The notes under the pieces: model-generated | Seen by the model: only the letters and a program-made list of their open reading frames with translations | Told to the model about the DNA's origin: nothing | The model's database searches: none | Origin: Callorhinchus milii | Taxonomy: Eukaryota | Length of the DNA stretch: 64,000 bases | Assembly (NCBI RefSeq): GCF_018977255.1 | Contig: NW_024704742.1 | Coordinates: 95,048,001 to 95,112,000 of the forward strand | Direction: 5' to 3' | Shown: one piece after another, positions 1 to 51,495 of the stretch | Layout: each line of letters opens with the position of its first letter | How positions within the stretch are numbered: position 1 is the stretch's first letter | Position numbers and translations under genes: made by a program

Positions 1-142
1 TCTTCAAAGGTATCTGTTACAGGCTTCCGTGACAATCGATATGGATAACTTGTGATAGTTATAGATTGAGGTAAATAATTGCAGGTAGAACTTCAAATAT
101 ATACAAGTCTAAATACATCATTTGTGGGTTTTATTTTTGCAG

Positions 143-332
143 GCTACTTTACAATGGTGATTGCAGCATGCATTTTGAACTTCAACAGGGCCCTACCTCT
201 CCTTGTGTTAACCTTACTTGGCTTGTTTTTTTACTTCTGGGATACGTTTGTTGCAAAGTTTGAAGACAATATAGTTGAGGCCTTTGTTCCCTGTGACAAT
301 TTCATCAAGAAGCAATGGTACTGGTTAAAATG
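143..332 (+). CDS. SLC28A3: SLC28A3 exon ([10 protein letters not shown]...QWYWLKW)
   Basis: ttttgcag acceptor, tg|gtgagt donor; matches CNT3 N-terminal TM segment. Confidence 0.95.
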
Positions 333-3300
333 GTGAGTAAAGTGTCCATTTGCTTTGGAGTTATTCTGGGGCAATAATATTGGCTGAGAATTGACATATC
401 TATCTTTGATTTTATCGTTGATTAAACTACAAATAACTTTAAAATAGTCATTAAGGTGGCACAAAGCAAGACTGTGCAACCCCATAAAATAATGTTGCAT
501 TGTGAACAAGTATCAAAAAGGTGTATTATTTAGTCATCGGTGCAACAGTGAATATTTTTTGAAGAGGGGAAGATTTGAACTTTGCTGTTCCTCTGTGAGG
601 TATAATTCTATCTGGTAGCACAGTTAAAAATGGGTGAAACTTGATCAATGACGCCCGGCACATTCAAATAAAAGTCAAAACTGATTTGAAACTTGCATTC
701 CTGCAGAACAACAACAACAACAAAATTACATTTATATAGCGCCTTTCATGTCGGGAGGACGTTCCAAGGCGCTGGACAGACAGAGTTGCAGACCCGAGCT
801 GAGGGTTGGGGTGGGGGAAGGGAAAGGGCAGGGGCAAAGCAGGGAGTCGAATGCATGGTCGAAGAGGAGGGTCTTAAGATGGGTCTTGAAGGTGGCGAGG
901 GAGTGGGTGAGACAGAGGGACTTCGGGATGGAGTTCCAGAGGGTGGGTGTAGAGTGGTGGAAGGCCCGCCCGCCGATAGTGGGGTGAGCAAGGCGGGGTA
1001 CATGAAGCAGGTCAAAGCCTTCTGAACGCAGGGAGCGAACATGGTGGTAGGGGGTTAGGAGGTCGGAGAGGTAGGGGGGAGCAAGACCATGGAGGACTTT
1101 GAAGGTAAGGACCAGGATCTTGAACTGTATCCTCTGTGTAATGGGAAGCCAGTGGAGTTGGGCAAGGATAATAATAATAAATAATAATCCTTGCATTTGA
1201 TATAGTGCTTTTCATGTCTTCTAGACATCTCAAAGCACTTCACAGAATATGTAAAGTGAATTGACTGTATATTTGTGGGCGAAACGCGGTAGCCAATTGC
1301 GCACAGCAGTGTCCCACAAACAGTCGTGGATTGCAAATGACCAATTTATTATTGTTTTGTTTTGGAGGGATTATTATTAGGTGTGTGGCGTAAGGAAACT
1401 TGCCCAAGGTTTCGCCCTGCCTGGAACTGAACCCAGGTGGCTTGCTTGCAAGGCAAGTGCTCTAACCACTGAGCTATAGGACTCCACAATGGGGGTCCTA
1501 CAGATTGGGGTGATAGGGTGATAGGGTCGCGGAGCCTAGTGCGGGAGAGGACGCGGGCTGCAGAGTTCTAGATGATCTGCAGCCTGTGGCGCAAGGAGTT
1601 GGGGAGGCCGACAAGCAGTGAATTTGTATCATCGAGCCCCGATGTCATGAGGCGTGTATGAGGGTTTCGGAGGCCTGCGGCGTGAGACAGTGGCGGAGCC
1701 GGGCGAGGTTGCCAAGGTGGGGAAGGCAGAGCGGGTTATGGCGTAGATGTGGGGGTAGAAAGGATAGTTAAGGGTCAAACAAGATCCTAAGGTTCCAGAC
1801 TGGCTCAGCAAGGTGGAGTGTGCAACCATGGGCTGTGATGCAGTCAGTCGGAGGCGCTCACAGGAGCCAATCAAGAGAGCCTCGGACTTGTTGATGATCA
1901 ACTGAAGAAAGTTAGCTCTCATCCATTGGAGTTAATGGATCCTAACTCTATTTAATGTAACTTTCCAACTCAGCACACATTTTGAGGTCTCAGTGTCATA
2001 TGTTTGAGGTACTCAGTGCACATATTTCGTGTGGTATTATGTAAAGTGTCAGTTAAAACACATACAATTCAATGTGATGGTTTGAAGTAAAAAAAAACTT
2101 GCTCAATCTGTGTTTTGTCTCAGGGTGATTTATCTGACTTTGGTTGTAGCTGTGTTGTGTTGGCTTGTACTGGACACAGCCAAGCTAGGTGTCAGCCAAC
2201 TTATCTCCTGTGGAGGGCTTGTAATGTATATTTGCCTCGTGTTCATTTTCTCCAAATATCCAACAAAGGTAAAGCCAGTTCATTATTTTTCCTGCGAATG
2301 TTAACTAAATGAAGTATTTTTAAACAATAGATTTCTATCGCATCCTGTCACATACTCTCCAGTTTATTACTACATAACATTTTGACAGCTCTCAATTTTA
2401 CTTTGGCAATGTGTGACTTAAGAGCACAGTACCTTTCTCACATCTCTCTACCAACTGGCTACTGTACAAATGAAAGTGTAATAATAATATTCCTTGAATG
2501 TGATATATAGCACCTTACAAGGTCGTCGAGATGCTCCAAAGCGCTTCACAGGACTTACTGTAAAATGTAGAAACTTTTTTTTGTTTTTTAAAGACAGTAA
2601 CAGTGAGTGAGATACCAACATGCTAGCAAGTCGGGTAATTTTACTAAATAGTTTTGCAGTAAACTCATCAAAAAGTTGTGTTGTTCTGAATTTAGGCCAT
2701 CTAAATAGTTCTTTATTGTAATCTTCAGCCTTGACTAGGTTTGGTGATTTCTCAATGCCTCTTCCTCTCTTGTTTGTCCTAATAATAATAATCCTTACAT
2801 TTGATATAGCGCATTTCACATCTTCTAGACGTCTCAAAGTGCTTCACAGAATATACTGTAAAATGAATTGACTGGATATTTGTGGGCAAAACACGGCAGC
2901 CAATTTTGGATTGAAGTGACCAATATTTATTATTGTTTTTTTTCTTGAGGGATTATTATCAGACATGTGGAGTAAGGAAACTTGCCCAAGATTTCCTTAC
3001 TCCAGGAAATCGAACAGGAATCGAACCCAGGTCTCTCGCTTGTGAGGCGAGTGCTCTAACCACTAAGCTACAGGACTCCACAGGAGTCACTGAGCTACAG
3101 GACTAAGGTGCAAATTCCTTTGTACTTCCACTTGTTTATCCCTGTAACCTTCATGTGATGAAATCTAGCCTTGAAGTAACTCATACTCTAACGTAATATT
3201 CTAACTTTCACAGGATTTCAAAATTGTACAACTCTTCACTCCTCAACCTTTCTTCCATCCTTCAATTTTAGGTTTTCTTTATTTAACATTCTTTTCTCCT

Positions 3301-6300
3301 ACTCTTTTTAACCTTCCTGGTGTCTTATGCTTTGGCTTTTGTTCCTTCAATTAGGTTGCTCAGAGTAAAAGAACAGATTTGGGTGTTGAAGGTGGGAGTG
3401 CCCAGAACTCTTTAGCACAGTGTGGTAACTTAATAAATTTGTTCACTTTTAAATCGCATTTCTTCCCACACTCTTTTCTACTTACTTGGGATCCCACTAC
3501 TTTCCTGAGATACTGTCTGGCCAAAGCTATTAATAATCTGTGAGGTTAATTAAACTTTGCACCACATCCAGTGCTGAGAATATGCAAATAGTTACCGTTT
3601 TCTATCTTAACTAACACTTTACTGTGAAGCATTTTGGGACATTTCATCAATGTACAGGGTTATCAAAAAGTTGTGTTCCCATTACAATGTTCAATAAGTC
3701 TCAAAGATATAGTGATTTTTTAGATAATAGGATAGTTATCACGACTTTTTGGTCACACTGTACAAAATTTACAGTCAAATCACTTTACAGTCTATTCTGT
3801 GAAGCGCTTTGAGATGCCTCGAAGACGTGATAAGGTGTTACATCAAAATGCAAGGATTATTATTATTATTAATGTGATAAGGTGCTATATTAGATGTAAG
3901 GGATATTATTAATAATAGTCACAAAACAATAACTTGTGATTTTGTGCAATATGCAGACATTTATATTTTTTCTGGGTATTTTGTGCTTAATCTAAAAGCT
4001 AAATATTGTTGTCTCCCATTAGTAGTATCAAGCTCACTCTCTGCAACTAACATTAAGATGACAGTTGTAGACATACATTAATGAGTTTTTACTTGGAACA
4101 TGTCTAGGTGCCTTGGAGGACTGTATTCTGGGGATTGGGTTTACAGTTTATCCTTGGAATTGTCTGTCTGAGAACACAAGTGGGATTCAATGTATTCAAC
4201 TGGTTGGGGTCTCAAGTTCAGGTATGTGAAAGAGAATGACTAAATCATTTCCAAAAGCCCTTAAAAGACAAATGCTTTTTTCAAAATATTTATGGGACTT
4301 ATTGTCCCAACTCAGGTGCAAACCCTTCACTGTCCAACGCCTTGGGATGTCTTCCTGATGTGAAAGACATCATATAAATACAATTTGTTATTATTGTTGA
4401 GATTACACTATGATCAAATGTGGAATTTCCATTTATAAAACGTCTCGGTTAAATACTGCAATTTGATATTGATAAGCCATGGCTGTCAAGACCCTTGGCA
4501 TGTCCTCTTGATGTGAAAGACACCATATAAATGTAAAATTGCATTGTACTTGCTCCATGTTCCCTACCCTGTCCACCCCACCATCGGCAGTCGGACCTTC
4601 AGCCTTTCTGATCCCAACCCCAGGTTCAGGTGCAAAAATCCTTGATAGTCCAGCACCTTGGGATGTCCTTCCGACCTGAAAGGCGCTATGCAAATTTGTT
4701 GTTGTTGCCTTTTAACGAGGCACAGTGAAAAAGTATTTGTAATTTGGGGGGCTATTGAGGAGAGAGAAAATATTTGGTGACATAAATGTACAAATGACTT
4801 AGTGAAAGATTTGGATGGCATTTTTACATCATTGTGGGAAACAAAAATTGTTTGCTCAACACTGCTTCATGAGACTGCAGGATGGGCTGGCCTTTTGTAT
4901 TGGGGTGATGTTTTGGTATATTCCATGTAACTAATTCATACTTTTATCTTGTTACAGTTTTTTTTGCAATATACAGACGCCGGTTCAAAATTTGTATTTG
5001 GTGATGCATTCACACATCACTATATTGCATTTAAGGTCAGTACAAAAAATAAACGTTTAAATATTTGATGCTTAAAAAGTTCTGGTGGTACCATAGTTGA
5101 GAAAGAATTGAGTAACACTTTAATGTTCCCATTTAATCACTAGGTCCTCCCAATAGTGATCTTTTTCAGCACAGTGATTTCCATACTGTATTATATTGGA
5201 TTCATGCAGTGGCTTATTATGAAGGTAAGTTGTGAGCAGCTTTGAATTCTTATTAAAAGTCTTATTATTACCTTTCTAATGGTCAAGTACAAAGCCCACT
5301 TTTAACACAGCGAAAAGAACTGTACACAGTAATCTAGGTGCAGCCTGATTGGACCATATACACCTTAAGCTTGACTTGGCAATATAGCCCAGCAACCCAT
5401 TTGTCTTGTTTATCTTTGTTTCAACTTTTGAGCAATGAGTTAACAAACACCTCTTTCAACTTCCCAAGCTTTCCTGAAGCTGATAGAATAAATTAAACTT
5501 ATTGGCATTAATATTAGAAACTTAAAGTAAGACCAGCAGTACACAAATAATTTTCAAAATGGATGCTTTAAGTTAGTTAATCATGGGGGTGCTGGATAGC
5601 CAATTAGAAATTTCCAATATAGCCATATAGTCCATATAGCCAGTCCACCACTTCCAAGCACAGGGCTAGTACCACAGCATCATTGTTAATCTGCCACTGT
5701 TTCCTATCTCCAACCACCCTCCACTTGCCAGTAACGAGCCAAGCAACAACAACAACAACAACTTGCACTTATATAGTGCCCTCCACACAGGGTAGCGTCT
5801 CAGAGGGCATAACAGTTGCGGAGCCTGTCTATGAGTCAGGGGGTGGGGGGCAGGAGATGGCCGTAAGCACAGTTGAAGAGGAAGGTATTCAGGCAGGACT
5901 TGAAAAAGGGGAGAGAGGGGGCAAGGCGGAGGGATTGAGGGAGAGTGTTCCAGAGTTTTGGGGTGCAGTGGCTGAAAGCGTGAGGAACGAGCAGGAGGCC
6001 ATTGTCAGTCGACCGGAGGCGCCGGGTGGTGGATTGGGGAGTGAGGATGTTGGAGAGGTAGGGAGCTGTCAGAGAGTGAAGGGATTTGAACATGTGTGTG
6101 AGGTTCTTTAAGTCGATCCATTCGGTGATGGGGAGGCAGTGGAGCCTGGCCAGAACTGGTGAGATGGGGGTATGGAGTTTGGTCCGGGTCAGTATTGGGC
6201 AGCAGAGTTCTGAATGAGCTGGAACCTTTTCAACAGTGGAGCTGGGGAGACCGGTGAGGAGTGTGTTTGAGTAATCCAATCGCCGAAGCCCTGAGGTTGC

Positions 6301-9300
6301 CGGCTCCCATTGATCAGTTCCCCGCAGCGTAGGTGTCACTCAAGGCCACCCGTTGGTGGAGTGCACCAGAAAAGGGGGATTGAGGGGAAAGACAGGATTT
6401 ACTATGTATCCTTATTAAGGACCGCTGAAAAAGCCCCTCCCAAGCGTGGGTCTGGGGGCATTGTTAATCCGCCTGGCTATTCAGATGAATGTTAAAAATC
6501 CATGGCACTATTGAAAAACAGAAGGGAATTTTTTCTGGTGTCCTGACCAACAATCCCCCTGCAAAAATTGGTTATTTATTTCCTGGCTTTTTTCTGAGAC
6601 ATTGCTGAGCGCAAACTGGCTACTGCAATTACTAGCCTCTGTAGTAAATCCTGTGAAGCACTTTGAGACATTCTGCTGATATAAAAGGCACTATACCCCA
6701 GCATCCTAACAAAATTGGATTCTACTTATTCTCATAGATTATTTGTCAGAGAAAATTGTGCAATTAACAAAGATTTGCAAATAGCCGCAAAGATAAATTT
6801 GCAAGGATCAAGACTCTGGGAACTATGGTCAGCAATAAAATAAAATCCCAGGAAAGTCAATAAAACCCTAAAATATTTGAAATGTGTGCATGAAATATTT
6901 AAGGGATTAGTGAATGTACTTTAGATTTGGTTACACTCAAGTGATTTTACTTAAGACACAATTCCAATTTATTTGATAAAAATCAGTATTTGTCAGGTTT
7001 TCATTATAAAGCATTGCGACACGTTACCCTGGCCAATGTGAAGGTTGCTGTATAAGTGCATGTTGTTGTTGGTACCTCTCCAACCTGCTGACACCCATCC
7101 CCTCTACCCTCCCCTTCGCTCAGCTGGCTCCGACCTCCTGCACATTCTTTGTCCCCTCTGTTCCACCAACAGCAGGTATGCTTTCAGCCACTCCACACAA
7201 AGACTCTGGAACTCTCTGCCTCAGTTCGTCCACCTTGCCCCCTCCTTGTCCGTCTTCAGATCACTTCTGGAGACCTTCCTCTTGACCAATCTATGGTCAC
7301 TGCCCTCTCTCCCTGGCTTAGCGTCAAGCTTCTCCACTATTAAGTGCTCCGAGACAGTACGCCACATGAAGGGCACTGTATAAATGCAAGTTGTTGTCAT
7401 AGGCAGTGGGTGGCTAGCGCGAGAGGAAGCTCAGTTCCCTTCAAAAATATGGATGACTGCTACCACCACCCCCCCCCCGAACCCCCACAATTCTCACTCC
7501 ACAGGCTCCGTACCAATCTTAAAGATGGCTGTTCCCCTCCTTCCTCCGCACCATGCAGACACTGTACCAGCCTTAAAGATGCCCTCCACCTTCCTCACTG
7601 TGCAGACTTCAATGGATCTTGGAGTCTGTGGGATGATGACAATGGAGGCAGCCATCTTTAAAGCTTGCAAGGAGCATTGCACACTGAGGAGGTGGGAGCG
7701 GGAGGTAGCCATTTTTGATACTGAGGCTGCGAGTGTCTAAAAGGGGTCGAATACTCAGCGCCCCCCCACACCCCCACCTGGCAAAAAATATTTTCTCCCA
7801 ACTCCTGTGGTGAATCTTAGTAAGAATTCCCAAAGCTAACTATTATTGTCTGTTTTATGTATTTTCTATTGTTTCAAACGTCAAAAATGGTCAAACTCTA
7901 GGTTACAAAGTCCATACAGAAGACTGACAATCTTAAAACCCAGAAATTGACCATTTTTGTAGTTCAAAAGAAAACAAAAAATCTGGAAAAAGTAAGGTAA
8001 AATGTCAGTATAATCTGTTGAAAATTATTTTAAAAATCCGTAAACTAGTAACCCTCAATATAATCCATTACTCAACCAGATTGTCCACCTAAGTACAGTG
8101 TGATGCAAGTTATTGTCATGAGGTTTCCTATCCAAATATTAATGCATGGAAATCTGAGCTACCTTCAACATAGGACAGCAATTGTATCCAATTTCACTGA
8201 GTGAAACTAAATACTTTAATCTCAGCTCCTTGGAACATCCTCCTGATGGCGCTAATAAATGTAATTTGTCGTTGTTGTTGAAACTAAATAGGGATGTATC
8301 TTTACTGCTACAAAAAAAAAGGTTTCTGTCAGGAGAAAAGTGTCCAAAATATTTTTTCTTATTCTTACAATATTACAGCATCACAGTTTATTTTGCTGAA
8401 TGATACAGACCAGATTTTTAAAGGTTCAATTGATAGGAATGTCTTTGCAATAATATCCTGTGTTACTTTAGACTGATATTCCATTTCCATCAAGGTTGGC
8501 TGGCTCATGCATGTTACCATGGGAACGTCTCCGATGGAGTCAATGGTGGCAGCAGGAAGCATATTTGTGGGGTTGGTGAGTAGAACTAATCAGTCAGTGA
8601 TATCTACAAAGTTCACCCTAGTCTTTGTCATCCATCAGAATTAAAACACTATGTCCGAGCCACATGACTTTACACTTCAATCCCAAATCTGGCCAAGATA
8701 GTAAAACCAAGTCACTTTCCTCAAATGATAATGTCATATGTGGTTTCACTTTAGCTCCACAAACCATGAAACCAGGTACAATGGTCTTCCCTTCTTGTCA
8801 ATTTTCAGGGGACATTTTGACTTTTGTTGTTAATTCTGCCTGCCGCACCCAGTACACGTTGAATGCTCTTTATTCAAGTGAGAGCTTTAAGAGTAAGTAT
8901 TAGCAGGCTAGTCAACCAGTATAGTGTGATGGTGGATGCATTACAGCCTGTTCTCACAAACACACAATTTGCAGTGACTTGTAAATTATTTATTCAATTT
9001 TATATTTGTTTTTTGTGCTGTAATCTTGAGAATCCCAGTGCTTCCTGCTTCAGGAATCACTCTTTAACCAATTGGGCTGAGTGGCCTACTTCTGTGCCTT
9101 ATCACTCTGTATAACTCTATGACGAGCCTGAGAAGTGGAATATTACAAAAATCGAGGCCTACCCCAGTCGCTCATTGAGATGTGCTGACACCTAGTGGTT
9201 GATCAGTCTTTCAAATTAAATACATACGTAGTTTGCATTTAAATGAATGTCCCAGGTGTTAATTATTTGTATATATATATTAATATAATAATCCCTGCAT

Positions 9301-12300
9301 TTGATATAGCACTTTTCACGGCTTCTAGACATCTCAAAGTACTTCACAGAATATACTGTAAAGTGAATTGACTGTATACTTATGGGCGAAACACGGCAGC
9401 CATTTGCCCACAGCAGTGTCCCACAAACAGTCGTGGAATGAGTGACCAAATTATTATTGGTTTTTTTTTAGGGATTATTATTTCCGTAGAAGTGATCCGC
9501 CAATTGACTAACAACTTACTGCTACTTACTGGTTCCTACTTACTGCTAGGTAAACAGAGGCGTGTGGAGTAACAAAACTCAAACCCACATCTAACCATTG
9601 AGCTCCAGGACTCCATTACTTTTATTTAATTATGAAATGCCGCAAATTCAGATCTAATTTATTTTTTATGTGCAGTCAAATTATTTGTATGTTTACGTGC
9701 ACACGCAGACCGAAACCCCACTCTTGATTCGTCCGTACCTCTCAGATCTCACAAAATCTGAGATCCATGCTGTCATGACTGGTGGGTTTGCAACCATTGC
9801 TGGAACTGTCTTCGGGATCTTTATTTCATTTGGGGTGAGTGACCACAAATAATCGTTATTATCCATTTCTTTATAATCCTTACATTTGATACAACACCTT
9901 TCATGTCAGCAAGATGTCTCAAAGCATTTCACAGGATTTTAGTGTAGTGACAATATTTATAACCTTATGTTCAAGATTATACTATTGAACACAATCTGAC
10001 ATTATGTTCACTCGTAAAGGAAAGCTTGTGAGAAGCTTGCATCTGCATACCTCTGGCTCTGATTCCATCAATCTCCACAGCTGTTTACTCAGGCTGAACT
10101 TAGTGGTACACAACTTTAGTGATCTTCTTGATACTGCACCACATTAGATCCGTTGCTAAGATTGCCTTTACCCACCTCTAGAACAATCCCTAATCATGCC
10201 CTTCCCTCACCCCAGTGAAATCTTTATCCATGCTTTCCCCACCAGAAGGATAGTTTTCCAATGCTCTCCTTACCAGCCTTCTGATCTGCACTCTCCAAAG
10301 ACTTCAACTGATTCAAAACTCTGCAGTCCAAGTTTTCTCCCACACAAGAGTCTGCACACTCATTTCACCCCCAACCTTGCCTAACTCTTTTAGCTCCCAA
10401 TGCTTCAGAAAATGTAGTTTAATATATTTCTCCTGGTATTCAAATCCTTCTATCATACCTAGGTATTCTCCTCCAGCCCTGTTCCAACCTGCACACTCCT
10501 CATCCTGTCACTCTGGTCTATTCCTCACTCTCCACTGCACTATTGGTGTCCAAGTCTTCAGCTTCCATGTCCCTGTTATATGAGACTCTCTTCCAAAACC
10601 ACTTTGTCTTTCTACCCCTTCTCTGCCTTCCAAAGCATTAGTCTTTGGCCTTACCTTTGGTCAACATCTTTAAATATCCTGTTAACTTGTTCAGTATTCA
10701 TCATAATATTTGTTAAGTGTTCTCGAATATTTGTTCAGTGAAAGCCAACAACAGGCAAATTGTTCCTGAAAGCTAAAGAATGGATTCTGTTGAGACCTAA
10801 GCTTAGGTTTGTGGTAATACAAAGATGACAGTAAATTGTCAAAAAAAAACAGGCTGAAATGTACAAATAGACTATACTATTATCTTAAGGACCAGCAAAA
10901 TGTCTGATGTTTAAAATACAGGTTTCAGCCTCCCATCTGTTGACAGCCTCAGTGATGTCTGCTCCCGCTTCTCTGGCTGTTGCCAAACTCTTCTGGCCTG
11001 AAGTTGATCGCTCCAGAGTAGGACTCAAAACTGTTCTTAGTTTGGAAAAAGGGTAAGTTCCTCTTATTCCTCTCTTACAACTTACAACAATGAATGGCAT
11101 GAAGGCAGGAAGGTTATTAAGGCTATTAAGTAGGATCAGTGGGTTGTATCGCTCCATAAAGGAATACAACTGCACAATAACAATCTCTGGCTGAAGTCTG
11201 TTGTCAGTTATGGCTGGAGGGGTCATTCTGGGATGGTGCCAGTGTTACACAAGGCCGGTGCTTTACAATAGACCCAGAAGGGTATCCTTAGGGTTTGGAG
11301 GAAGCATTAAACGGAGTTGGCATCTGACCCAATAGGACATAGCAAGAATCCATCTGAATGGAGGGTGGAAGAGCTGGCGGGAAATGGGCCAAATAGATGG
11401 ACTTAATGGCTCAGTCTGCTGGAAGGAAGTGGACTCAGCACTGTGTCACCTTGCTAATGGTAAGGCATCAGGTGCAGACAGCATTAATGCCGAGTTCCTA
11501 AAAACTGCTCTGAGAGTGGCCACAGAGAACAGTGAGTGTCTTACAGAGCTAAGCCAGGAACCTAGACAAGTCAACACAGTGGTCACTGAGGCGAGCAATT
11601 CATTGGTGTTTCCCAACTGTCTCAAGACAGTCCTCCCGACATGAAAAGCACTATATAATACATGTAAGTTGTTGTTGTTTCAGAGTGTCATTGTGGGATC
11701 TATCCACAAGAAGAGTGATTTTAAGACTGGGAGCTACCAAGGAATCTTACCGATTTCAGTAGTTCTTCAGGTAGTCACTGCACTTATACTGTATTGCATG
11801 ATTCCACCTATGTTTCATTCATCGATTTCCACAAGGTCTTCAACCCAATGCCTCATGAAGCACTTAGTGTATATGTATATAAGGGATCCTGTAGCTCAGT
11901 GTTTACAGCACTCACCTCGCAAGCAAGAGACCTGGGTTTGATTCTCGGCAAACAAAACCTTGGGTAAGTTTCCTTACTCCACATGCCTTCCGTTTCCATT
12001 TTCTTTAGTGTTTCTTTTAATATTTCTTTCATGGCTGCTGATACCCTTCTGAGGAGTTGTATCATATGTTGTAACTTTTAATCTTACTTCAAACTCTTTC
12101 ATTAACCATCTCTTTACAAAACCCTTCCTGTATTTTTTTCAATACGTCTTCACTTTCTAGTGATGCAGTTTTTAAGCATTCCCATTTTGATTATTTCTGG
12201 GAGTCCAATCAATGTTTCTGCTCTGGTTTTCTCAATGTCAAATATTACTTTATGTGACTTGCTTTTATAGAGCAATAACAACAAGATTACATTTGTATAG

Positions 12301-15300
12301 CACCTTTCACGTCGGGAGGACGTCCAAGGCCTGGACAGTGTACAGCATTGCAGCACTTCTATCTCTACTCTTCCTACTGTCTCTGTTTCCCCCTTTGTTA
12401 TACGCAGTGAGTATTCCTTGTCCCTTTCTCATTTTATTCTCCCAATCTTTGGTAAATCTCCTATGACATTACACTTGCTTGGGTTCCAGTGTCCAGCTTG
12501 CATTATATATTTTCTGTCCTTCCATACACCTGAATGATATATTCATCATATCTCCTAAAGGCATCTCCACGTCTCTCTCTAGTGTTTTGAAATATTATTG
12601 TGCCTTTTCTGCTGCCCACATTTAAAAATATTGCATTTTGCTATATTTGTAAGGTAGTGACTATTGCAAATATCTGTAAATCCAGTTCTAACTCCTATCA
12701 ATTATGTTGTAAGTTTCCTATTACATTCAATGGTCTTGGTATTTGCACATGCCTTGATAGTTAATCTTTTTCTGGCATTCCCAAGCTCAAGTATGTGTTT
12801 GTTTTCCAATATCGGTGTCCACTTGCTTTGTCTTTTCCAGTCCTGATTCAGTTCACTTCTGATATCATGTACTCACTCAGTACATGGAGTGTAATTGAGA
12901 TTATTTGTGTCTTTACCAAATGATACTGATCCAAACTCTACCTTAATACTCCCTGTACCCATTTTCCAGTGTTCTTTTGCATCAGTCTTTCATACCCTAT
13001 GGGTCAAAGATGATCAGTCCCCAAACTGACTTCCCTAGACTCAACCATACAATTGTTGGTGCCCCTTAAAATGATATCACCCAATTGCTTCTATTTTATT
13101 CTGCAGGCAAGGAAGAAACATAATAGAAGCTGCCTGTCTTGGAGCCTCCACCTCAGTATCACTTGTGGCATTGATCGCTGCCAATCTTATTGGGTTCCTG
13201 GCTCTTCTGGCTTTCCTTAATGCCACACTATCCTGGCTCGGAAACATGTTTGACTGTCCTCAGCTCAGCTTTGAGGTAAATTTCTGTCTTTATTTTCTTC
13301 CACATGTATTCTGTCCAGGGTTTTGAAGCATAAAAGTTTGGACAGACGGTGTTTCCACAGTGAGCAATGACCTGGAACAGGTTACCAGGAAAGATGGTAG
13401 AGTCCCGGACATTGGACTCATTTAGAAAGCAACTAGTACAGGCAGGATTGGAAAGGGCAGTAGTGTTAATATTCTAGATTGTTGAGATTTATTGCACTGA
13501 AGGGTCTTCTTCATGTGAACCTCTCCTGATATTTAATGTGCGGCTGATGGAACTGGAATCCTCATGTTTAAAACAGAAAACGTGTGGAACAAGAGAAGGC
13601 AATTCTGTCAATGATTCTGCTCTTTCTGATGGACCACAAAGAAATTTACAGCCCAGATGAAGGTCATTCAGTCCAACATGTCAAGCCATGTAGCAGGCAT
13701 TGATAGGGACTCTTTACAATTTATTTCAGGACTCCCAGTTTCCAGAATTTGCCGAATCCTTAAATTCAGCCTTAATTTTGAAGCCAGTTTTCAGTAAGTT
13801 CTTTTAAGTTTTACAGAGAAAACAACTTCAAACTTAAGACTGAATTCAACAATTTGTCAAATTCTGGACACTATTAGATGTTACATATATGAAAGAAGTA
13901 GAGACCGAGGTGGAATTTCTCCCAAAAATTAGGAAGCAAACTAACCTATATCCATGTGGGAAATCCATTAACTAGGCAAGTGATTAAAACACATCTTTCA
14001 TAAGTTGTAACTTTTCTTCCAGTTGATTTGTTCCTACATCTTCATGCCCTTTTCCTTCATGATGGGCGTGGACTGGGATGACAGCTTCATTGTTGCTGAA
14101 CTTATAGGAATAAAAACCTTCTTCAATGAATTTGTGGCCTTTGAAAAGCTTTCTGTATTGATGAATAAAAGGCTTTCGGGTGAACCCGAGTACATTGAAG
14201 GAGTGAAGCAGTATCTGTCTGTAAGTAAATGGGAATTTCTTTATAAAGGGAGCATGGATGGCCTCTTTCTCATGCTAGCAGAATTTCGCAGAAGAAAAGA
14301 AAAAATGTTTTTCCTCTCAAATCATTAAATATTTTTGCTGCTTGGGTGCTTATCCTGTTTCATTTATTGACTCTGTTGATCTAGCCTCAATATTCAATAA
14401 TTTAACACATTACCAACCCTCTGAGGGAAGAAATTCCTTCTAACTTGCCCTAACTATGCTAACAGAAACATTTTGTGAAGCACTTTGAAATAGTTTTGAC
14501 AGGATAAGATGTTATATCAAATGTAAAGATTTCTATAATTATTCAAACCCTTTATTCATGGTTGTTCTTTTATAGATCCGTTCTGAAACTATTGCTACTT
14601 ATGCCCTGTGTGGATTTTCTAACTTTGGATCTCTTGGTATTTTAGTAGGAGTGTTGGGTAAGTTTGAATTTGCCAGGTTCTCTGTTTCATAAATTGACTG
14701 ACATCAAACCAAGATCCTGTTTTCACTTGGATGTTAAATATCCCATGATACTCTTTGAAAATAGAAGGAGTTTCTCCCAGCATCCTGGCCAATAATATTC
14801 CAGATTAATTTGCCACTCATGGCTGTTTGCGGCACTTTGCTGGTGCAAATATCTGCCATATCTGCCTATAAAATATCATTACAATTAGTGGGCCACCTCA
14901 TCCTCCAGGCTTTCCCACTCTACATCATCATCATCATTATCTCCTCTTGTGACCGCAGCTATGACCACCTGATGTTGCCCTAGCTTACTTTGTAAATTCT
15001 TGATATGAGCCTGGCATCTAGTATGATCGCCAGTTCCCATCCCGATCTGTTTTAATTCTTCTCTTAGCACCCCTCGAGCGTCACTCAGCTCCTTCTGCAA
15101 TCGACTAAACTCCTGACTCTTTGCTCTCGCTTCCCTTGTATTCTTCTTGAGCTGCCCTTGCCAAGTTAACAACAGCCTGCTGTTCCCCCACAAGGCAGTT
15201 CAATTCAGTAATTTTCATCCTCATCTCTTGTACCTGACGCCTCAACTCTCTTACAGTTTCTTGATGTCCTGCCTTCCCCTGCTTTATACGTTAGTTACTC

Positions 15301-18300
15301 ACACTACAATACCTCAATGCATACTTATGCACATTTTTGGCACCTTTTCCTTTAAGGTGACCCGCTTGCATCTCTTTCTCAACCCATTCTCGGGCTTGAG
15401 TGTAAGGGTCTCGTGCACTGGTCAAGACACTCACTATACCCATTCCATTACAGAACCCTTAATCTTCTCCTTGTACTTTTCCCATGACCCTGTCATGTTG
15501 AATAACCCAGTTAGTCACTTGTCTGGTCCTGCTGCGGTCGCCATATTGTTGGGATCTGAACTCCCGGTGTTCGAGTCAAAAGACCAGACAATAAAGTTTT
15601 GTGGCTAACTCAGTTTATTCAAATATAAGCACAGCAAGAATACATAAAACATTTACTACCCAGTTCTGGAGCAGTCAGCGTGCTTTGGCCCTCTGCCTCT
15701 GCATGCCTGGGTTCCCTGCAGATTCTGCTGCTTTATGTCAATAACCTTTCAACTTTATACCTTTTTGTTCATCCAATCAATTATCAGGCACTTAGGCCTT
15801 TCACAACAATTCTTTCTGTTTCGGTGGATGTTAAAGATCCCGTGGCACTATTCAAAAAGAGAAGTTTCTCCAGTATCCAGACCAACAATCCCCCAAATAA
15901 AATTGGTCACTTACTCCATGGCTGCTTGTGGGACATTGCTGTGTGCAAATTGGCTGACACTTTTGATTACAGAGTCACTCCACTTCACAGTAAATCATGT
16001 GAAGTGCTTTAAGATATCGACAATGTGATAAGGCACTATACCAAATGTAAGCTCCCCAGCCCTGCAATAGTGTCAGTCTAGATTGGGTTACTAACATGAG
16101 GCATAAACCCACAATGTAGAGTTGAAAATATTTGTCTTCAGCTTCAAAGCCTTCCACAGCCTTGCTCCTTCCTACCTCTGTGACCTGCTAACTCCATATC
16201 AACCTGTCCGCTCCCTCCACTCAGCATGCTCCAAGTCCCACACCCATCCCGTCCCACCATCAGCGGTCGGGCTTTCAGCTTCTCTGCCCCCGCCCTTTGG
16301 AACTCCATCCCACATTCCTTTTGCTTCGCTTTCTCCCTTTGCCTCCTTCAAGGCATGTCTCAAGACCCACTCTTCGACCGCACTTTCGGTCACCCTCCTA
16401 TCCCTACACTCCCTGCCCTCCACCCCTCCTGATCCCAATCCCCTCCTCGGGTCCAAATCCCTGTCTGTTCAGTGCCTTGGGACATCTTCCTAACGTGAAA
16501 GATGTTATACAAATGTAATTTATTGTTGTTTGTTGCAAGTATTATTAATATTATCAAACTGCAGTAGTTTGTGGAGTGGCATCATAAGTTGTGATTGTAT
16601 TTACACTAACTAGAATAAGAGGGAAATTGGCAGAAATGTTGCCCCAATATGTCCTGAAATTCTAATCCCTGTGCTTGATGATATGATTATTACATTAAAT
16701 ATTCTGGACTAAATTGAGGTGAGGTGTTCTTTGAACCATTGCAATTGCATCTCAGTTTCATTGATCGTCTTTCTCCTTCAGTATCTATGGCTCCCCAGAG
16801 ATCAGCTGACATAACAGAGGTCTCTGTTCGGGCTTTAATTGCTGGTACCATCGCATGCTTTATGACGGCATGCATAGCAGGTATGATTTTCAAGCTATTA
16901 GTCAAACAATTCACATGAAGATGACTTGAGAAGTTACCTAGCTAGCTTTACATACTTATCCCAGTGCAAACATTATAGGATGATAGATATTGGTTTAATG
17001 AATGATTTACGTCTATTGTCTATTGGCTTTATTAATGGTTTTTAAAGAACATGCCAGTACTATATGATGCAATGAAAATTGATCACAACATCAGATTGCG
17101 GTCGAACCAGTTTTGATCGCACCTGGTGTGATATGAAGGCATATCAGCAAGAATAATCTCAGTATTTATCCCTAGACCATGCTCATCTGATCATAGTAAG
17201 ACATATGGAGATACCAAACTACAATTGGTAGCAAACCTCCTACAACTAAAACAACTAAAGTAACATATGCATAGGATAACACGTTGGAGCACCTTTCACA
17301 AGGCAATGTGGATCACCGAGAATTTAGTGCGCCACTGAGAACATTTCCATTTTCCAACCATTTTTCAGTCCTGTCATTATTCCCTCCTCCCCATCCCTTG
17401 TCTGGCGACTAGTAATTTGGTATCAATTGTAAGTACAAGAAGATTTGCGCTGTGGGTTCGAACAAGATTGATATGGAAATAATTTGAGTCGTGAATAATA
17501 CGAAGAGTCTTGCCATCCCATCAATCTGGACTGATTTTGGGGAGGTTACTGGGTGCCTTAACACATGATAAAGCCCATCATCATGCTTAAGAGTATCCAA
17601 ATCAAAGTTCCATATATGTATCCCACCTGCATATGGAAATTTCCCTGTGTCTGGAATGGAAAACACACTCTCTCCCTGGAGGGACACATACTGCTTACCT
17701 AATTCTAGAGAGTATTAGGTGCAGGCTGGCAAGAGCAAATGCTTGGGGACTCCAGAGTGTAACATTGGGGTACTGCTGGAATTTAACCAGTTAAGATTGC
17801 ACAGCCTGTCATCGAAAGGACTGTCGGCAAGCTTTCCCACTGATTATCAAGCTAGGACCACCCAACCTTGTTAGGGCTTTGGCTTGCAGGGTTAACCAAA
17901 GCTGAGTGGCAAGGATCCCTGCCCCCCATGACTGATCTGGAACCGGGAACTCCCTGCATGCTTAGTGGTGGGCAACACAGCTTAGTATGAAGTGCGTGAG
18001 AGCATTGCCACTATCTTCCTGCCCACAGCTTGGTCACACATCCCTATCCATTGAGCGATGGTTCCACCATTTGCAGATGTGGAGTTTGAGCAACAGCTGT
18101 TTACCTCTCTGCAAACCAATCAAGGTGGATTGCAAGCCCTGGATGTATGAACATTTGTGCCCAAACTGGACTCCAGGTATTGCCTTCCAGTAGATTTTGA
18201 CCCAAGCGTCAGAGTTTCCTCATCAGCTATCTGACAGACATCTGCCTTCAGTGTGATAGGAGGTCCTTTACAGGACAGCTTGTGATGTGTCAGCCACCTT

Positions 18301-20255
18301 GTTGTTTTCAAGACTTTACTTGATATTGAGACTTTAAACACCATTATTTGTTTTAAATAGGACTATTATACATTCCTGTCACAGATGTGACTTGCTCCAC
18401 TTTTCTGGAGAATTCTTTCAATGCCTCAAGCTTACCGAGCAACAGTACACAACTGGTTCAATGCTGCACAGATCTTTTCAACAAGTACGGCAAGTCTGTA
18501 ATCATTTCCATTTAATAGTTATCATTTCACAAAGAGATCTTCCTGGGGTCTCCTGGACAACAACCCTCCAACCAACTTGTTCTTTCACCTCATACACTTA
18601 AAAGGGGCAAATTAACAGAGAGACCTGGAGGTCCACATAAGCAAATCTCTGAAGGTGGTAGGGCAGGTACATAAAGTTGTTAAAAAATCATACAGGATAC
18701 TAGGTTTTATAAATAGGGACATAGAATTCAAAAGTCAGGAGGTTATGTTGAATATTTATAAAATGCTGGTTAGGCCTCAGTTGGAGTACTGTGTTCAGTT
18801 CTGGACACCACACTTTAGGAAAGATGTTAGGGCATTGGAGAGGGTGCAAAGGAGGTTTACCAGGATGGTACCAGGATTGAAGGACCTTAGTTATGAGGAG
18901 AGGTTAGCGAAATTAGGATTATTCTCCCTAGAGCAGAGAAGATTAAGAGGGGATTTAATAGAGGTTTTCAAGATCATGAGAGGATTTGATAGGTTGAACC
19001 AGGAAAAACTGTTTCCACTGGCATGTGGGTCAGTAACCCGAGGACACCATTTTAAGATAATTGTTAAAAGAAACTGAGGGGAAGTTAGGAAAAAAAATTT
19101 CACCCAGCGAGTTGTTTGGATCTGGAATGCATTACCTGAAAGGGTAGTGGAAGCCGATTCAATAACAACTTTTAAGAGAGAAGTAGGTGGGTATTTGGGG
19201 AGGATAGGATTGCAGGGCTACGGAGAAAAAGCGGGCCAGTGGGATTGAGTTGGATTGCTCTTTTAGGAGCCGGCGCAGACGCGATGGGCCGAATAGCCTC
19301 TTTCTGTGCTGTATGATTCTATGATTCTATATCTGTTTGTGGAACTTTGCTGGCAGAAATGTCTGCAAAGTTTGCCCACAACAGTAAATTGCACTTAAAG
19401 GACACCTTTCAAGAAAGACGTACTTCACAGAGATAGAGTGCAAGCCCGAGCTAGGTGGGAGATATGTATGTACGTGCATGGGTGGGTGTCCCACGCGGGC
19501 TGGTGGGGTTGGAGGTGTCCAAAATAAAAGAGCTCAGTTTTTTGGCAGGTAGAAAGTGGAGTGGGAGCTAGCAAAGTAGAGGAATTCAGGAGAGATCCAG
19601 AAAGCGGGACACAGTGTCTGAAAACTTACAAGAACAAGTCACTACAGACGAGAGCAATTTGTTGTTTGTGCTACATTGGCAGAGGTGCCGTCCTTCAAAT
19701 AAGGTGTTAAACCAAGGTCTTGTCCGCCTGTTCAGGTAGATGTTAAAGATTCCATCGCATTATTTGAAAAGAGAAGAGAGTTTCTCTTGGTGTCCTGACC
19801 AACAATCCCCCAGATTAAACTGGACATTTGATTCATGGCTGTATGTGGGACATTGTTATTTACAAATTGGCTGCTGGATTTGTCTACAAAATACATAATC
19901 ACTAGACTTTACCATAAATAAGTGTTTTGAGCTGCCTCAGACATGAATGGCACTATATCAGAACATTGCTGTGAGCAAATTGGCTGTTGCATTTGCCCAC
20001 AAATACACACACTACACTTTACAGTAAAATCCTGTGAACACCATTGAGATGTCTCGATGAGGTGGTAAGAAACTATGTCAAATGCGAGGATTCTTATTAT
20101 TATACAACACTATTGTTCTAATTTCATTCCTTGATTATTTTCATTTTAGCACCATCGTGAATACCACACACTACGTCTTTGGAGGAAACTACATTCTTAC
20201 TTCTCTCATTGGGTGTTGCAAAGTGATGGATTCCTCAACATTTGTTTGCATGTAA
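143..20255 (+). CDS. SLC28A3: Concentrative nucleoside transporter, CNT3-like (5'-partial). join(143..332,2124..2268,4108..4221,4958..5035,5144..5224,8495..8575,9709..9834,10922..11052,13107..13275,14023..14220,14576..14657,16782..16880,18361..18484,20150..20255)
   Basis: 14 exons with AG/GT boundaries and compatible phases. Total 1724 nt = 2 nt + 573 codons + TAA. Colinear with human CNT3 as recalled ([51 protein letters not shown]-terminal CC motifs). Confidence 0.95.
707..1925 (-). mobile_element. L2-clade LINE 3' fragment, interrupted by a SINE at 1168-1487
   Basis: [30 protein letters not shown] motif; (caa)n tail at 707. Confidence 0.9.
1168..1487 (-). mobile_element. tRNA-head SINE with L2-like tail, inserted in L2
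   Basis: Head gtggagtcctatagctcagtggttagagcac (A box) and ggttcag (B box-like); (taa)n tail; the L2 resumes on both sides. Confidence 0.9.
2124..2268 (+). CDS. SLC28A3: SLC28A3 exon ([22 protein letters not shown]...FSKYPTK)
   Basis: tgtctcag acceptor, aag|gtaaag donor. Confidence 0.95.
2781..3081 (-). mobile_element. tRNA-head SINE, full length
   Basis: Same family as 1168-1487. Confidence 0.9.
4108..4221 (+). CDS. SLC28A3: SLC28A3 exon ([14 protein letters not shown]...WLGSQVQ)
   Basis: tag acceptor, cag|gtatgt donor; 114 nt; not in the ORF track. Confidence 0.95.
4958..5035 (+). CDS. SLC28A3: SLC28A3 exon ([26 protein letters not shown])
   Basis: ttacag acceptor, aag|gtcagt donor; YTDAGS-FVFG motif. 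Confidence 0.95.
5144..5224 (+). CDS. SLC28A3: SLC28A3 exon ([27 protein letters not shown])
   Basis: tag acceptor, aag|gtaagt donor. Confidence 0.95.
5745..6280 (-). mobile_element. L2 3' fragment
   Basis: RLDYSNTLL...ARLHCLPI; (caa)n tail. Confidence 0.85.
7510..7725. repeat. Imperfect palindrome, MITE-like
   Basis: ttaaagatggc-type arms mirrored by gccatctttaa around cagacttcaa-tggatc-ttggagtctg. Confidence 0.6.
8495..8575 (+). CDS. SLC28A3: SLC28A3 exon ([27 protein letters not shown])
   Basis: ttccatcaag acceptor, ttg|gtgagt donor; HP1 region. Confidence 0.93.
9281..9615 (-). mobile_element. tRNA-head SINE, degenerate
   Basis: Family tail and body, truncated head ending ggactcca. Confidence 0.85.
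9709..9834 (+). CDS. SLC28A3: SLC28A3 exon ([11 protein letters not shown]...[18 protein letters not shown])
   Basis: cgcag acceptor, ggg|gtgagt donor. Confidence 0.95.
10922..11052 (+). CDS. SLC28A3: SLC28A3 exon ([27 protein letters not shown]...EKG)
   Basis: cag acceptor, gg|gtaagt donor; ASVMSAPA motif. Confidence 0.95.
11380..11810 (+). mobile_element. Old non-LTR retrotransposon RT N-terminal fragment, interrupted by an L2 tail (~11630-11680)
   Basis: [27 protein letters not shown] matches the EV..AI..L.NGKAPG.DGI.AE.LK motif; IHKK...GSYQGI resembles IHKK..NYRGI. Confidence 0.7.
11985..12560 (-). mobile_element. Gypsy-type LTR retrotransposon pol fragment (protease + RT N-terminus), degenerate
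   Basis: [20 protein letters not shown] (DTG at 12485-12493), [47 protein letters not shown]2 tail inserted ~12271-12350. Confidence 0.75.
13107..13275 (+). CDS. SLC28A3: SLC28A3 exon ([10 protein letters not shown]...[12 protein letters not shown])
   Basis: ttctgcag acceptor, gag|gtaaat donor. Confidence 0.95.
13741..13870. mobile_element. Hairpin MITE-like element
   Basis: ~50-bp imperfect inverted arms (tccagaatttg...gttttc / gaaaac...caaattctgga). Confidence 0.7.
14023..14220 (+). CDS. SLC28A3: SLC28A3 exon ([16 protein letters not shown]...[10 protein letters not shown]...QYLS)
   Basis: ttcttccag acceptor, tct|gtaagt donor; CNT signature GxKxxxNEFVA(Y/F). Confidence 0.96.
14576..14657 (+). 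CDS. SLC28A3: SLC28A3 exon ([27 protein letters not shown])
   Basis: ttttatag acceptor, g|gtaagt donor. Confidence 0.95.
14885..15808 (-). mobile_element. Truncated LTR retroelement (ERV or Gypsy class): 5' LTR 15547-15808, PBS 15526-15543, degenerate gag-like ORF
   Basis: LTR ends TGTTG...CAACA, with TATAAA (15754-15759) and AATAAA (15614-15619); PBS TGGCGACCGCAGCAGGAC 3 nt downstream; coiled-coil-like reading with stops. Confidence 0.8.
16120..16530 (+). mobile_element. L2 3' fragment
   Basis: [18 protein letters not shown]; family 3' tail. Confidence 0.85.
16782..16880 (+). CDS. SLC28A3: SLC28A3 exon ([11 protein letters not shown]...[14 protein letters not shown])
   Basis: ctccttcag acceptor, cag|gtatga donor. 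Confidence 0.95.
17540..18310 (-). mobile_element. 3' end of a non-LTR element with a CCHC-like knuckle and long 3' tail (GGCTGACC-tail family)
   Basis: [20 protein letters not shown] at 17977-18039, followed by ~370 bp shared with other copies in the window. Confidence 0.6.
18361..18484 (+). CDS. SLC28A3: SLC28A3 exon ([41 protein letters not shown])
   Basis: aaatag acceptor, aa|gtacgg donor; extracellular tail with NAS and NST sequons and CC. Confidence 0.88.
18595..19330 (+). mobile_element. CR1 LINE 3' fragment
   Basis: [20 protein letters not shown]...[17 protein letters not shown]; attctatg-type tail. Confidence 0.93.
19680..20102 (+). mobile_element. Deu-domain SINE fragment(s)
   Basis: gccgtccttc...ttaaaccaagg...gatgttaaagattccatcgcattatttgaa core plus family tail. 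Confidence 0.7.
20150..20255 (+). CDS. SLC28A3: SLC28A3 terminal coding exon ([34 protein letters not shown])
   Basis: ttttcattttag acceptor; GGN..L.SL.GCC...STF.C pattern as in the CNT3 C-terminus; TAA at 20253-20255. Confidence 0.9.
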
Positions 20256-47820: not shown

Positions 47821-48740
47821 CACATTGCTGAGATGTCTCAAAGTACATCACAGTACAGTAAAGTGATGTGACTGTTGTATTTTGTGAGTGAATGTGGAAG
47901 CCAATTTGTGTAGAGCAATGTTCCATAAACAACCACAAAATGAGTTAGATAAGAAGAAAGAAAGATTGCTATATGTACGAATTTAGCAGATATAAGAGAG
48001 GAGATGTCAAGGTTAGGATGGGAGAAAAATAGGCAAACAAATCAAATATAAAAAGGTAAATATAAGTGATTAATAGAATAATAGAGAGAAAATTTGAAGG
48101 AGAAGCAAATATATAGGCAGAAAAATATGCTTTTAACAGCACTCAATATAAGAATGCTCTGGAATTTTCAGATCAAATTGACAATTATGGACGGCTCCTC
48201 CAATTTGCTTCATCAGATTACACACATATGAATTTTGATGTGCATTTCAGTGATCAGCTTGCAGAATGCTGCTGCCAAGCCAGCCCAAGGACACACACAA
48301 ATAACTGGATAGTTTATAGATGAATTAGTGAAACTGACAAGTAGATTGACCAAAAGCAGGCCTGCAGCTCAAAGCCCAACATCCAAATATCTTACTTAGT
48401 TGCTTGAACCTATTGCACAGATCCTAAATTAAGCCTCCCTCCCGCTCCCTCCCACTCACATAATAATCTGAAATGCATCGTTTTTAAAAATATATATTCC
48501 ATTGTGGACGAGCTATTTTCAACTTCAGCGCTTAAGAGAAATAATCTGCATTGTCATGCACTGTGATCTGTATATTTTGTGCACCTAAAACATTCTTTCA
48601 TAATGTTCTGGTGTGGGTTCCGATCTCGCACAGCACATGAATACTATAGGTGTTGATCTTTAGAGTGAAACCAAACTACTAGGTGAGACTTCGTCTCGCA
48701 GACAGGCTGGAAGCACAAGAGTGTGTTATGGAGGAATTAT

Positions 48741-51495
48741 ACTCAAAATCCTCCTCCTCTACCGGCCCCCTAAAACCTCTCCCACCTTCATCTCCGATAT
48801 TTCTACACTACTTACATCTCTCTGCCTCTGCTCTGATCGGCTCATCATCCTGGGCGACTTCAACCTGCACTTCACCCCCTCCTGCCCCATCTCCTCGGAC
48901 TTCTCTTCCCTGTTCTCCTCGCTCAACCTCTCCCTCCACATCAACTCTGCCACTCACAGTCACGGCCACCCACTCAATTTGGTGATCACCCGGGGCCTCA
49001 GTGTCTCGGATGTCACCATTACCGACAAGGCCGTCTCCGATCACCACTTCATCTACTTCACCACCTTCACCCCCCTCCCCACCTCCACCAGACCCACCAC
49101 CATCTTCTACCGCCCCTGGAAGAAGTTAACGCCACAATCCTTAACCGCTGCCTTGGAGTCCTCTGAACTCCTCTCCCTCTGGCCTTCAACCCTCACTAAC
49201 CCCTCTTCTCCTCTCACCCTCCTTCACAACACCCTCTCCTCCACACTCGACACTCTTGCCCCCATCACCTCCCGTACTGTCTTCTACTCTCGCTTCTCCC
49301 CCTGGTTCACCACCCACCTCCACTCACTGAAGAGCCAGGTGCAGGCCGCTGAACGCACCTGCCTCAAATCTGGTCTAACGGTCCACCGACAAATCTGGCT
49401 GGACCTCCTCAAAATCTACCGCTCCACTCCAGCCTCGGCCAAGTCGTCCTTCTATTCCAGGATAATCCTGGAGGCGAAGAACAACCCCAGGCTACTGTTT
49501 TCTACCACATCCCGACTCCTCCATCCCCCCCGCCACCCCGCGCAGGTCATCTCCTCCAACCCACTGCGAGGAGATGTTGGATTTCCTTCAATCCAAAATC
49601 AAGGGAATACGCTCCGCGGTCACTCCCCCTCCAACTTACACCCACCCCCCACCCCCTCCCTCCCACACGCCGACTCCTACCCATCCTCCCCTGCACACCT
49701 TCGAACCCGTTTCCGCACCCTCTGTCACCAAACTTATCTTGTCCCTGAAACCCACCACCTGCTCCCTTGACCCCATCCCCACTCCACTCCTTATCTCTCA
49801 GCTCCACCTCCTTGCCCCACATATCCCAGACATCATCAACCTGTCCCTCTCCTCTGGCTCTGTTCCCATTCCTCTAAAACTGCCATCATCACTCCCACTT
49901 TGAAAAAACCCTCCCTTGATGCGTCGCAGCTATCAAGCTACCAGCGCATCTCCAACCTTGCCTTTCTGTCCAAGGTCCTTGAAAGAGTTATCGCCTCCCA
50001 GCTGCGCTCTTTCCTCTCCACCCATTCATTATTCGAACCCCTTCAGTCGGGTTTCCGTGCTGTCCATAGCACAGAAACCGCCCTGGTCAAGGTCACCAAT
50101 GACATCTTGACCATCTGAGACCAGGGCTCCCTCTGCCTCCTTGTCCTCCTCGACCTATCGGCAGCATTCGATACAGTCGACCATGCTATCCTCCTCCACC
50201 GCTTGTCCTCCCACCTCAACCTTCAAGGCCCTGTCCTTGAGTGGTTTAGGTCGTACCTCTCCCAACATCTTCATTTTGTTTCCACAAACGGCTTTTCCTG
50301 CAGCCCCCGCTCTGTCTCGTGCGGTGTCCCTCAGGGCTCTGTCCTCGGTCCCCTCCTCTTCACCCTCTATATGCTCCCCCTTGGTGACATCATCCGCAGA
50401 CATGGGGTTAACTTCCACATGTATGCGGATGACACCCAACTCTACCTTTCCTCCTCTACCCTCAACTCCACGACCACCGATGTCCTGACAGCCTGCCTGT
50501 CCGACATCGAGTCCTGGACGAGAGACAACTTTCTTCAGCTCAACGTGCGAAAACTGAGGCCCTCCTGATTGGCTCACGTCAGCGCCTCCGCACCTCAGGC
50601 GCTGACAGCATCAGCATCCAAGGCTGCACTCTCCACCTCTCAAAGCCAGTCAGGAACCTCGGTGTTCTGTTCGACCCTGAGCTGTCCTTTCTCCCTCACA
50701 TCCGCACCACAACTGGCACCGCCTTCCATCACCTCCGAAACGTCGGCAGACTACGGCACTACCTCACCCCTCACACTGCTGAGACTCTGGTCCACGCCTT
50801 TATCACCTCAAGGCTGGACTTTGGGAACTCTCTCCTCTCCGGCCTTCCCGGGACCTCCCTCCACAAGCTGCAGGTCATTCAGAACTCTGCAGCTCGTGTA
50901 CTGTCCCACACCAGGCTTCGTGACCACATCACTCCCACCCTCGCTCGCCTCCACTGGCTTTCCATCCCCCAGAGGATCGAATTCAAGATCCTCATCCTCA
51001 CCTACAAGGCCATTCACGGCCTTGCTCCCTCCTACCTCTCCGACCTACTATCTCCCTACTTACCTGCCCGTACCCTCCGTTCCTCTGGCTCCGGTCTGCT
51101 CCACATCCCCCGCCCCAACCGCCCTACCATCGGTGGCCGGGCCTTCAGCCTCTCAGCCCCGAGGCTCTGGAACTCTATTCCCCAGTGCCTTTGCCGCCTC
51201 CTCCCTTTCCTCCTTCAAGGCCGGTCTCAAGACCTTTCTCTTTGACCGTGCCTTCAGCTCCCCTCTCAACTCTCTACCACATCCTCGCCCCCTCCCTTCC
51301 CTCCCCTCACCCTGACCATTTCCCCCCTCCTCGCTCCGTCCCTTTCTTCCCCTCACCCTGACCATTTCCCCCCTCCTCGCTCCCTCCCTTTCCTCCCCTC
51401 ACCCTGACCATTTCCCTCCTGCTCGGGTCCTGACCCAACTGTCCAGCGCTTTGGGACGTGAAAGGCGCTCTATAAATGGAATCTTGTTGTTGTTG
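48741..51495 (+). mobile_element. L2 LINE, ~2.75 kb, 5'-truncated ORF2 (APE C-terminus + RT) with frameshifts and a stop
   Basis: YRPP, IILGDFNLH, VSDHHFI (endonuclease); [35 protein letters not shown] (RT); (ttg)n tail. Confidence 0.95.
51305..51420 (+). repeat. 46-bp tandem repeat, ~2.5 copies, in L2 3' UTR
   Basis: cctcaccctgaccatttccc at 51305, 51351 and 51397. Confidence 0.9.

Follow-up and report, generated by a model that had tools for sequence, protein, structure and literature searches.

SLC28A3 locus of the elephant shark

We analyzed a window of 64,000 nucleotides from Callorhinchus milii (assembly GCF_018977255.1, contig NW_024704742.1, positions 95,048,001 to 95,112,000 of the forward strand), to which all the coordinates below refer. 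As presented in Table 1, the window carries the SLC28A3 gene, encoding the nucleoside transporter CNT3. Its exons give 593 open codons up to the stop, the 5' exons lying upstream of the window. When used as a query, the exon adjoining the HP1 exon was 100% identical to XP_007905023.1 (P0001), the C. milii solute carrier family 28 member 3, and the HP1 exon translation is likewise identical to this protein. The exon at 10922-11052 codes for one residue (Ser) more than XP_007905023.1, which gives the family length; this is either an allelic or an older-assembly difference.

Table 1. Features of the SLC28A3 locus in the analyzed window (residue numbers are those of hCNT3).
Feature	Position	Strand	Remarks
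SLC28A3 gene, 14 coding exons inside the window	85..20255	+	introns all GT-AG
Coding exons, first five in the window	85-332, 2124-2268, 4108-4221, 4958-5035, 5144-5224	+	
Coding exons, sixth to tenth in the window	8495-8575, 9709-9834, 10922-11052, 13107-13275, 14023-14220	+	
Coding exons, last four in the window	14576-14657, 16782-16880, 18361-18484, 20150-20255	+	
F284I	5024..5026	+	Phe in 143/143 other rows
HP1 exon, hCNT3 315-341	8495..8575	+	spliced to 9709 in run X6
Ser at the N336 position (HP1, primary Na+ site)	8558..8560	+	codon AGC; alignment, runs X1 and X6
HP1b-TM7 exon	9709..9834	+	T370 kept (9793), S374T (9805), L376F (9811), A378I (9817)
S396 kept	10958..10960	+	proposed second Na+ site
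N449L	13171..13173	+	scaffold TM9; Asn in 139/146 other rows
E519 kept	14128..14130	+	ribose-binding residue
C561 kept	14609..14611	+	
C602 (16856) and T605 (16865) kept	16856..16867	+	proposed second Na+ site

The Pfam domains found on XP_007905023.1, PF01773, PF07670 and PF07662 (Nucleos_tra2_N, Gate and Nucleos_tra2_C), make up the complete SLC28/CNT set. An AlphaFold2 model of the protein (mean pLDDT 91.1) matched human CNT3 (6KSW) with a Z of 60.8 and an rmsd of 1.6 over 511 residues, at 63% identity; Z was 46-61 against 13 CNT structure entries and 12.3 for the next fold. The protein is thereby predicted to have the CNT fold, intact. In a quick IQ-TREE search on 49 chosen rows, it fell inside the jawed-vertebrate SLC28A3 clade (SH-aLRT 95), apart from the CNT1/2-like and lamprey rows, its placement inside this clade not being settled by such a tree. 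The CNT3-like identity proposed in the initial annotation is thus supported, and sequence comparison identifies the protein as an SLC28A3 orthologue. Its total branch length in the quick tree, 0.44, is ordinary and not longer than shark root-to-tip paths; no general rate acceleration was seen. P0202, which comes from the cat family under the label sodium/nucleoside cotransporter 1, lay inside the mammalian CNT3 clade, and this label is probably wrong.

No second SLC28 copy was found in the window by tblastn, and neither SLC28 exons nor other genes were recognised by eye at 20256-64000; no neighbour gene was recognised in the window. Long frames in that part resemble remnants of LINE-type reverse transcriptases, for example at 48664-50565. 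In each of two homologue searches, the best 120 rows included just one with a Callorhinchus label.

A serine codon at the primary Na+ site, in independent runs and in a spliced transcript

CNT3 uses either 2 Na+ or H+ to import nucleosides as well as nucleoside drugs (PMC6986796, PMC7440666; see also PMC4139061, PMC7329351). The first Na+ site of hCNT3 comprises N336, V339, T370 and I371 (PMC7440666), and its ligands are three backbone carbonyls, the Asn side chain and T370, the Asn contributing through its backbone as well as its side chain (PMC5465479, Table 3). This agrees with the role of Na+ ligand given to the Asn at the outset. A second Na+ site has been deduced from mutants and is unseen in the structures cited there (PMC6986796, PMC7440666); it is putatively surrounded by S369, S396, C561, C602 and T605 (PMC7440666).

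The AGC codon at the N336 position is in frame with the HP1 exon, itself flanked by AG and GT, and hCNT3 (6KSW), bovine CNT3 and vcCNT each have the HP1 Asn where C. milii CNT3 has Ser. The hCNT3 numbering of this residue matches the residue table of PMC5465479 (suppl. Table 1). A PDB search with the 27-residue HP1 exon alone returned no match.

Contigs from four of the 24 listed sequencing runs (X1, X6, X9 and X20) were compared with region 8440-9880, one run per organism, polymorphism being possible. Run X1, under the same species label, gave a DNA-like contig over 8440-9314 at a depth of about 7, with no alternative letter at 8559. None of the runs listed for the region is recorded as RNA; run X6, from the same species and taken as RNA by guess from its splice joint, reached a depth of 1374 at 8559, again with no alternative letter. 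Its contig joint skips 1133 nt that coincide exactly with intron 8576-9708 and have GT..AG ends, and the depth, a poor measure here, was 827 at the spliced joint versus 5 within the intron. Since AGC is read both in X1 and in spliced X6, the codon is real and present in a spliced transcript. An assembly error for AAC is ruled out by the same two runs, and an RNA-level restoration of Asn by the G at 8559 in the transcript contigs; the open frame, canonical splice sites and spliced contig rule out a pseudogene. The serine initially read from the letters, as well as its presence in independent runs and transcript, is therefore confirmed. No recent duplicate with AAC was found at 80% or more over the exon in run X1, a search made at low depth with some differences uncounted. 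A very high-copy interspersed repeat lies in the intron at 9285-9580, with a summed contig depth above or near 1 million in the peak bins of all four runs.

Overall, elephant-shark CNT3 is intact, expressed, and carries Ser in place of the Na+-binding Asn of the other vertebrate CNT3 examined. We found no paper on elephant-shark SLC28A3 and no assay of C. milii CNT3 or of an N336S mutant, in a literature search that is weak on subscription journals and no proof of absence; the same search returned no paper with N149S among the matches listed and none on the bovine CNT3 structures.

The Asn is retained in close relatives

Runs X9 and X20, from two other organisms (B and D), have A at 8559, which gives AAC and Asn. 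Both also have A at 8567, so that residue 339 reads Met, and C at 8573, residue 341 still being Leu. Organisms B and D are probably other chimaeras, closely related to C. milii, because the introns of B align with its own at about 9% divergence. Since B and D combine AAC with Leu341, N336S is recent and lineage-specific, having arisen after the split from both, and Q341L is older. Met at the V339 Na+-site position was absent from 147 vertebrate CNT3 rows, and organism B additionally has Phe at 318 (window 8504); the tip of HP1 seems to be evolving in the C. milii and the B/D lineages alike. Between C. milii and organism B, the HP1 exon shows three amino-acid changes and one silent change. Relative to intron divergence, this corresponds to a rough omega of 0.56 (P 0.02 if omega were 0.1, P 0.10 if 0.2), an estimate from tiny counts in which four unlisted differences are taken as intronic.

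Conservation of position 336

We collected 216 homologue rows (clustered at 90% and with isoforms, almost all labelled as vertebrate), from which 20 gapped over 333-345 were dropped. Asn was observed at 336 in 195 of the 196 remaining rows, Ser being present in the C. milii protein only. Among the 147 near-full-length vertebrate CNT3 rows kept of the 216, all 146 others have Asn336. The position is more variable beyond the vertebrates: a wider set of 144 new 50%-identity representatives (best 150 of 8146) gave 131 ungapped rows with 111 N, 8 S, 6 C, 2 H, 2 A, 1 G and 1 V. The Ser336 rows include P0312, P0329 and P0333, and searches with P0300 and P0329 returned family-level names only. The distant homologue P0235, of 518 residues, carries Ser336 with Leu341, the same pair as C. 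milii.

Nematode-named CNTs had Asn336 in none of 69 ungapped rows (56 C, 8 S, 4 A and one misaligned L), a set that did not include C. elegans' own sequence, versus 25/25 for the other named animals in the same comparison. These proteins (among P0361-P0468) mostly pair Cys336 with Cys370 (56/70). Such a phylum-wide replacement would fit the C. elegans transporter CeCNT3, described as proton-dependent in the title of PMID 11160871; by the title of another reference, the Candida CaCNT is H+-coupled.

Other changed and retained residues

Compared with CNT3 of other species, we observed N336S, Q341L, S344T, S374T, L376F, A378I, Y379F, F284I, N449L and Y513I in C. milii; the same ten differences separate it from human (6KSW) and bovine (8TZ1) CNT3, members of the orthologous clade. 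The primary site N336/V339/T370/I371 is incomplete, with the other three residues kept. The proposed second-site set S396, C561, C602 and T605 is complete, each residue having the identity that the initial annotation gave it; the S369 position is Ala in C. milii as in mouse CNT3. Ribose and base-water contacts (T342, E343, E519, F563, N565 and S568) are all kept, and human and bovine CNT3 share these residues as well as the second-site set and the rest of the primary site. The same annotation had called the transporter otherwise intact. This holds for the gene, which is open and expressed, but Q341L, S374T, L376F, A378I, F284I and N449L had been overlooked.

C. milii breaks 7 of the 177 columns conserved at 95% or more, against a median of 2, and 12 of the 147 rows reach 7. 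Three of its seven broken columns lie within 326-385 (Fisher p 0.07), where at least three are broken in 7/147 rows. The number of broken columns is thus above average and not extreme.

Base-pocket changes (Q341L, S374T, L376F, A378I and Y379F) were observed at 8573-8575, the last codon of the HP1 exon, which is TTG and places Leu at the Q341 nucleobase-contact position, and at 9805-9822; L341 is common to the relatives. Position 341 varies in vertebrates as well (Q 176, N 10, H 4, M 4 and L 2 in 196 rows). The broad-selectivity set, Gln341 with G340, S374 and V375, is replaced here by L341 and T374. By analogy with the hCNT2 residues at the 340/341 and 374/375 pairs, Q341L together with S374T, L376F and A378I suggests a remodelled base pocket leaning to purines. 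This leaning is proposed because these pairs, where L341 and T374 sit, govern selectivity in hCNT1/2, and because pyrimidine uptake falls in the Q341C mutant (PMC5465479). The base-pocket changes may be more important for substrate choice than N336S is for coupling. Many CNT3 rows of spiny-rayed fish (among P0011-P0086), on a long and well-supported branch, have E343D, Q341N/H/M, T370S/G, S374T, Y379F and Y513I; several of these changes parallel those of C. milii, and N336 is kept in all.

Consequences for ion coupling

The initial annotation had proposed an altered cation coupling, with one Na+, protons or no coupling ion. Our own leaning, held with a little over even confidence, is that C. 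milii CNT3 is still Na+-driven, with a weakened primary site, a lost H+ mode and possibly a purine preference. Only one of the five listed primary-site ligands is lost. This reading is favoured because hCNT3 N336C keeps Na+ uptake and loses H+ uptake (uridine uptake of 1.3 with Na+ but 0.2 with H+, against 2-4 with Na+ and a ratio of about 1 for the parent), and because N315C of hCNT1, a 1:1 transporter, works (1.0 in Na+ medium; most HP1 neighbours 2.9-5.5). These values (PMC5465479) come from a cysteine-less background at a single substrate level, without Na+ affinity or stoichiometry.

The primary site would then lack the Asn side-chain oxygen within a working elevator-type nucleoside transporter. 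Na+ could still be bound by the backbone carbonyls of 336, 339 and 371 and by the T370 hydroxyl, perhaps assisted by the Ser hydroxyl or a water molecule. Transport would remain Na+-driven, though slower or with a reduced affinity for Na+. The H+-driven mode that mammalian CNT3 has would probably be lost, and the stoichiometry may stay 2:1 or drop to 1:1. Plasma Na+ is about 290 mM in the ratfish, another chimaera (PMC10808452), so a weaker site could still fill. Plasma Na+ is presumably similar in relatives B and D; since they keep the Asn, high Na+ would permit N336S and not explain it.

That Ser simply suffices, as a near-silent change in a CNT3 that keeps the usual 2 Na+:1 nucleoside coupling with its constraint somewhat relaxed, seems to us unlikely. 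Conserved columns are broken in other sharks and in teleosts too, the clustering in HP1/TM7 is weak, B and D carry an odd V339M of their own, and the branch length is ordinary. Against this, no other vertebrate-labelled row has lost the Asn, whose invariance in 146/146 rows argues that N336S has an effect; in the PMC5465479 data, N336C and N315C also lower uptake, and N336C alters cation preference.

A switch to H+ coupling or to Na+-independent transport, in convergence with nematode CNTs and E. coli NupC, seems to us quite improbable. As initially stated, NupC lacks the Asn and has the same residue as C. milii, Ser142 (PMC5465479 and bioRxiv 10.1101/2023.02.03.527023). NupC is a distant relative, so the likeness would be convergent. 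The nematode group likewise consists of animal CNTs without the Asn, with Ser in 8/69, and C561, which a reference title ties to H+ activation, is kept in C. milii. However, NupC alters more of the site (L145 and V177, PMC5465479), keeps Gln147 and lacks the three N-terminal helices, and its S142C mutant behaves as wild type in the bioRxiv text, which argues that Ser is not the cause of its proton drive. Nematode CNTs show a whole-phylum, multi-residue replacement, mostly C336, C370 and L339 (Leu339 in 64/70; Thr370 in 0/70, with 58 C, 9 S and 3 M), whereas C. milii shows a single recent change with T370, V339 and I371 kept. According to PMC5465479, T370C alone makes hCNT3 H+-preferring (1.5 in Na+ vs 7.1 in H+), and N336C, Q341C (3.6 and 0.8) and S344C (4.7 and 0.5) each cut its H+ flux; all three of these positions are altered in C. 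milii. H+-coupled CNTs combine the absence of Asn336 with a further change at 339, 370 or 371, and C. milii shows the former only. By its sequence features it is thus an SLC28 member and SLC28A3 orthologue that fits neither among the CNT3 proteins with a canonical Na+ site nor among the H+-coupled CNTs.

Two lines of evidence are opposed here: among natural CNTs, absence of the Asn goes together with a proton drive, and the vertebrate mutants point the other way. Cys is not Ser, and both NupC, which is proton-driven, and the nematode group are natural CNTs without the Asn. It is doubtful that the primary Na+ site is functionally gone and that transport is driven by protons or by the second, still unlocated Na+ site alone.

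Replacement of the equivalent Asn by Ser or Leu (N149S, N149L) reportedly disables the Na+ site of CNTnw, as stated in the initial annotation. PDB titles establish that both constructs exist and that N149S, the same substitution as in C. milii, was used in structures of substrate-site double mutants. Like the hCNT3 and hCNT1 mutants, these are laboratory constructs altered at the same position, whereas the Ser of C. milii occurs naturally, in an expressed gene, together with changes in the base pocket. Early decay into an uncoupled or low-activity transporter, to which N149S and the excess of amino-acid over silent changes in the HP1 exon could point, is in our view very unlikely: all 14 exons are open with canonical splice sites, the spliced contig predominates in depth (subject to the caveat above), E343, E519, F563, N565 and S568 are intact, and no second close copy able to take over was seen. 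Taken together, the vertebrate mutants weaken the H+-coupled and Na+-independent forms of the proposed altered coupling and favour a weakened Na+ site.

A natural variant in a drug-transporter family

The sequence of the protein has been public for a long time; the present analysis verifies it as a natural variant, specific to its lineage, of an ion-binding residue that is otherwise invariant. An expressed natural orthologue without the invariant Asn can be set against close relatives that keep it and whose exon is nearly the same. This gives a comparison at a single residue, in a background that is folded and under selection, and hence a natural test of ion coupling in a drug-transporter family. 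If transport proves ordinary, the Asn would be dispensable at marine-fish Na+ levels. If the primary site is gone, C. milii CNT3 would be a natural, revertible probe of the location of the second Na+ and of the interconversion of Na+ and H+ coupling.
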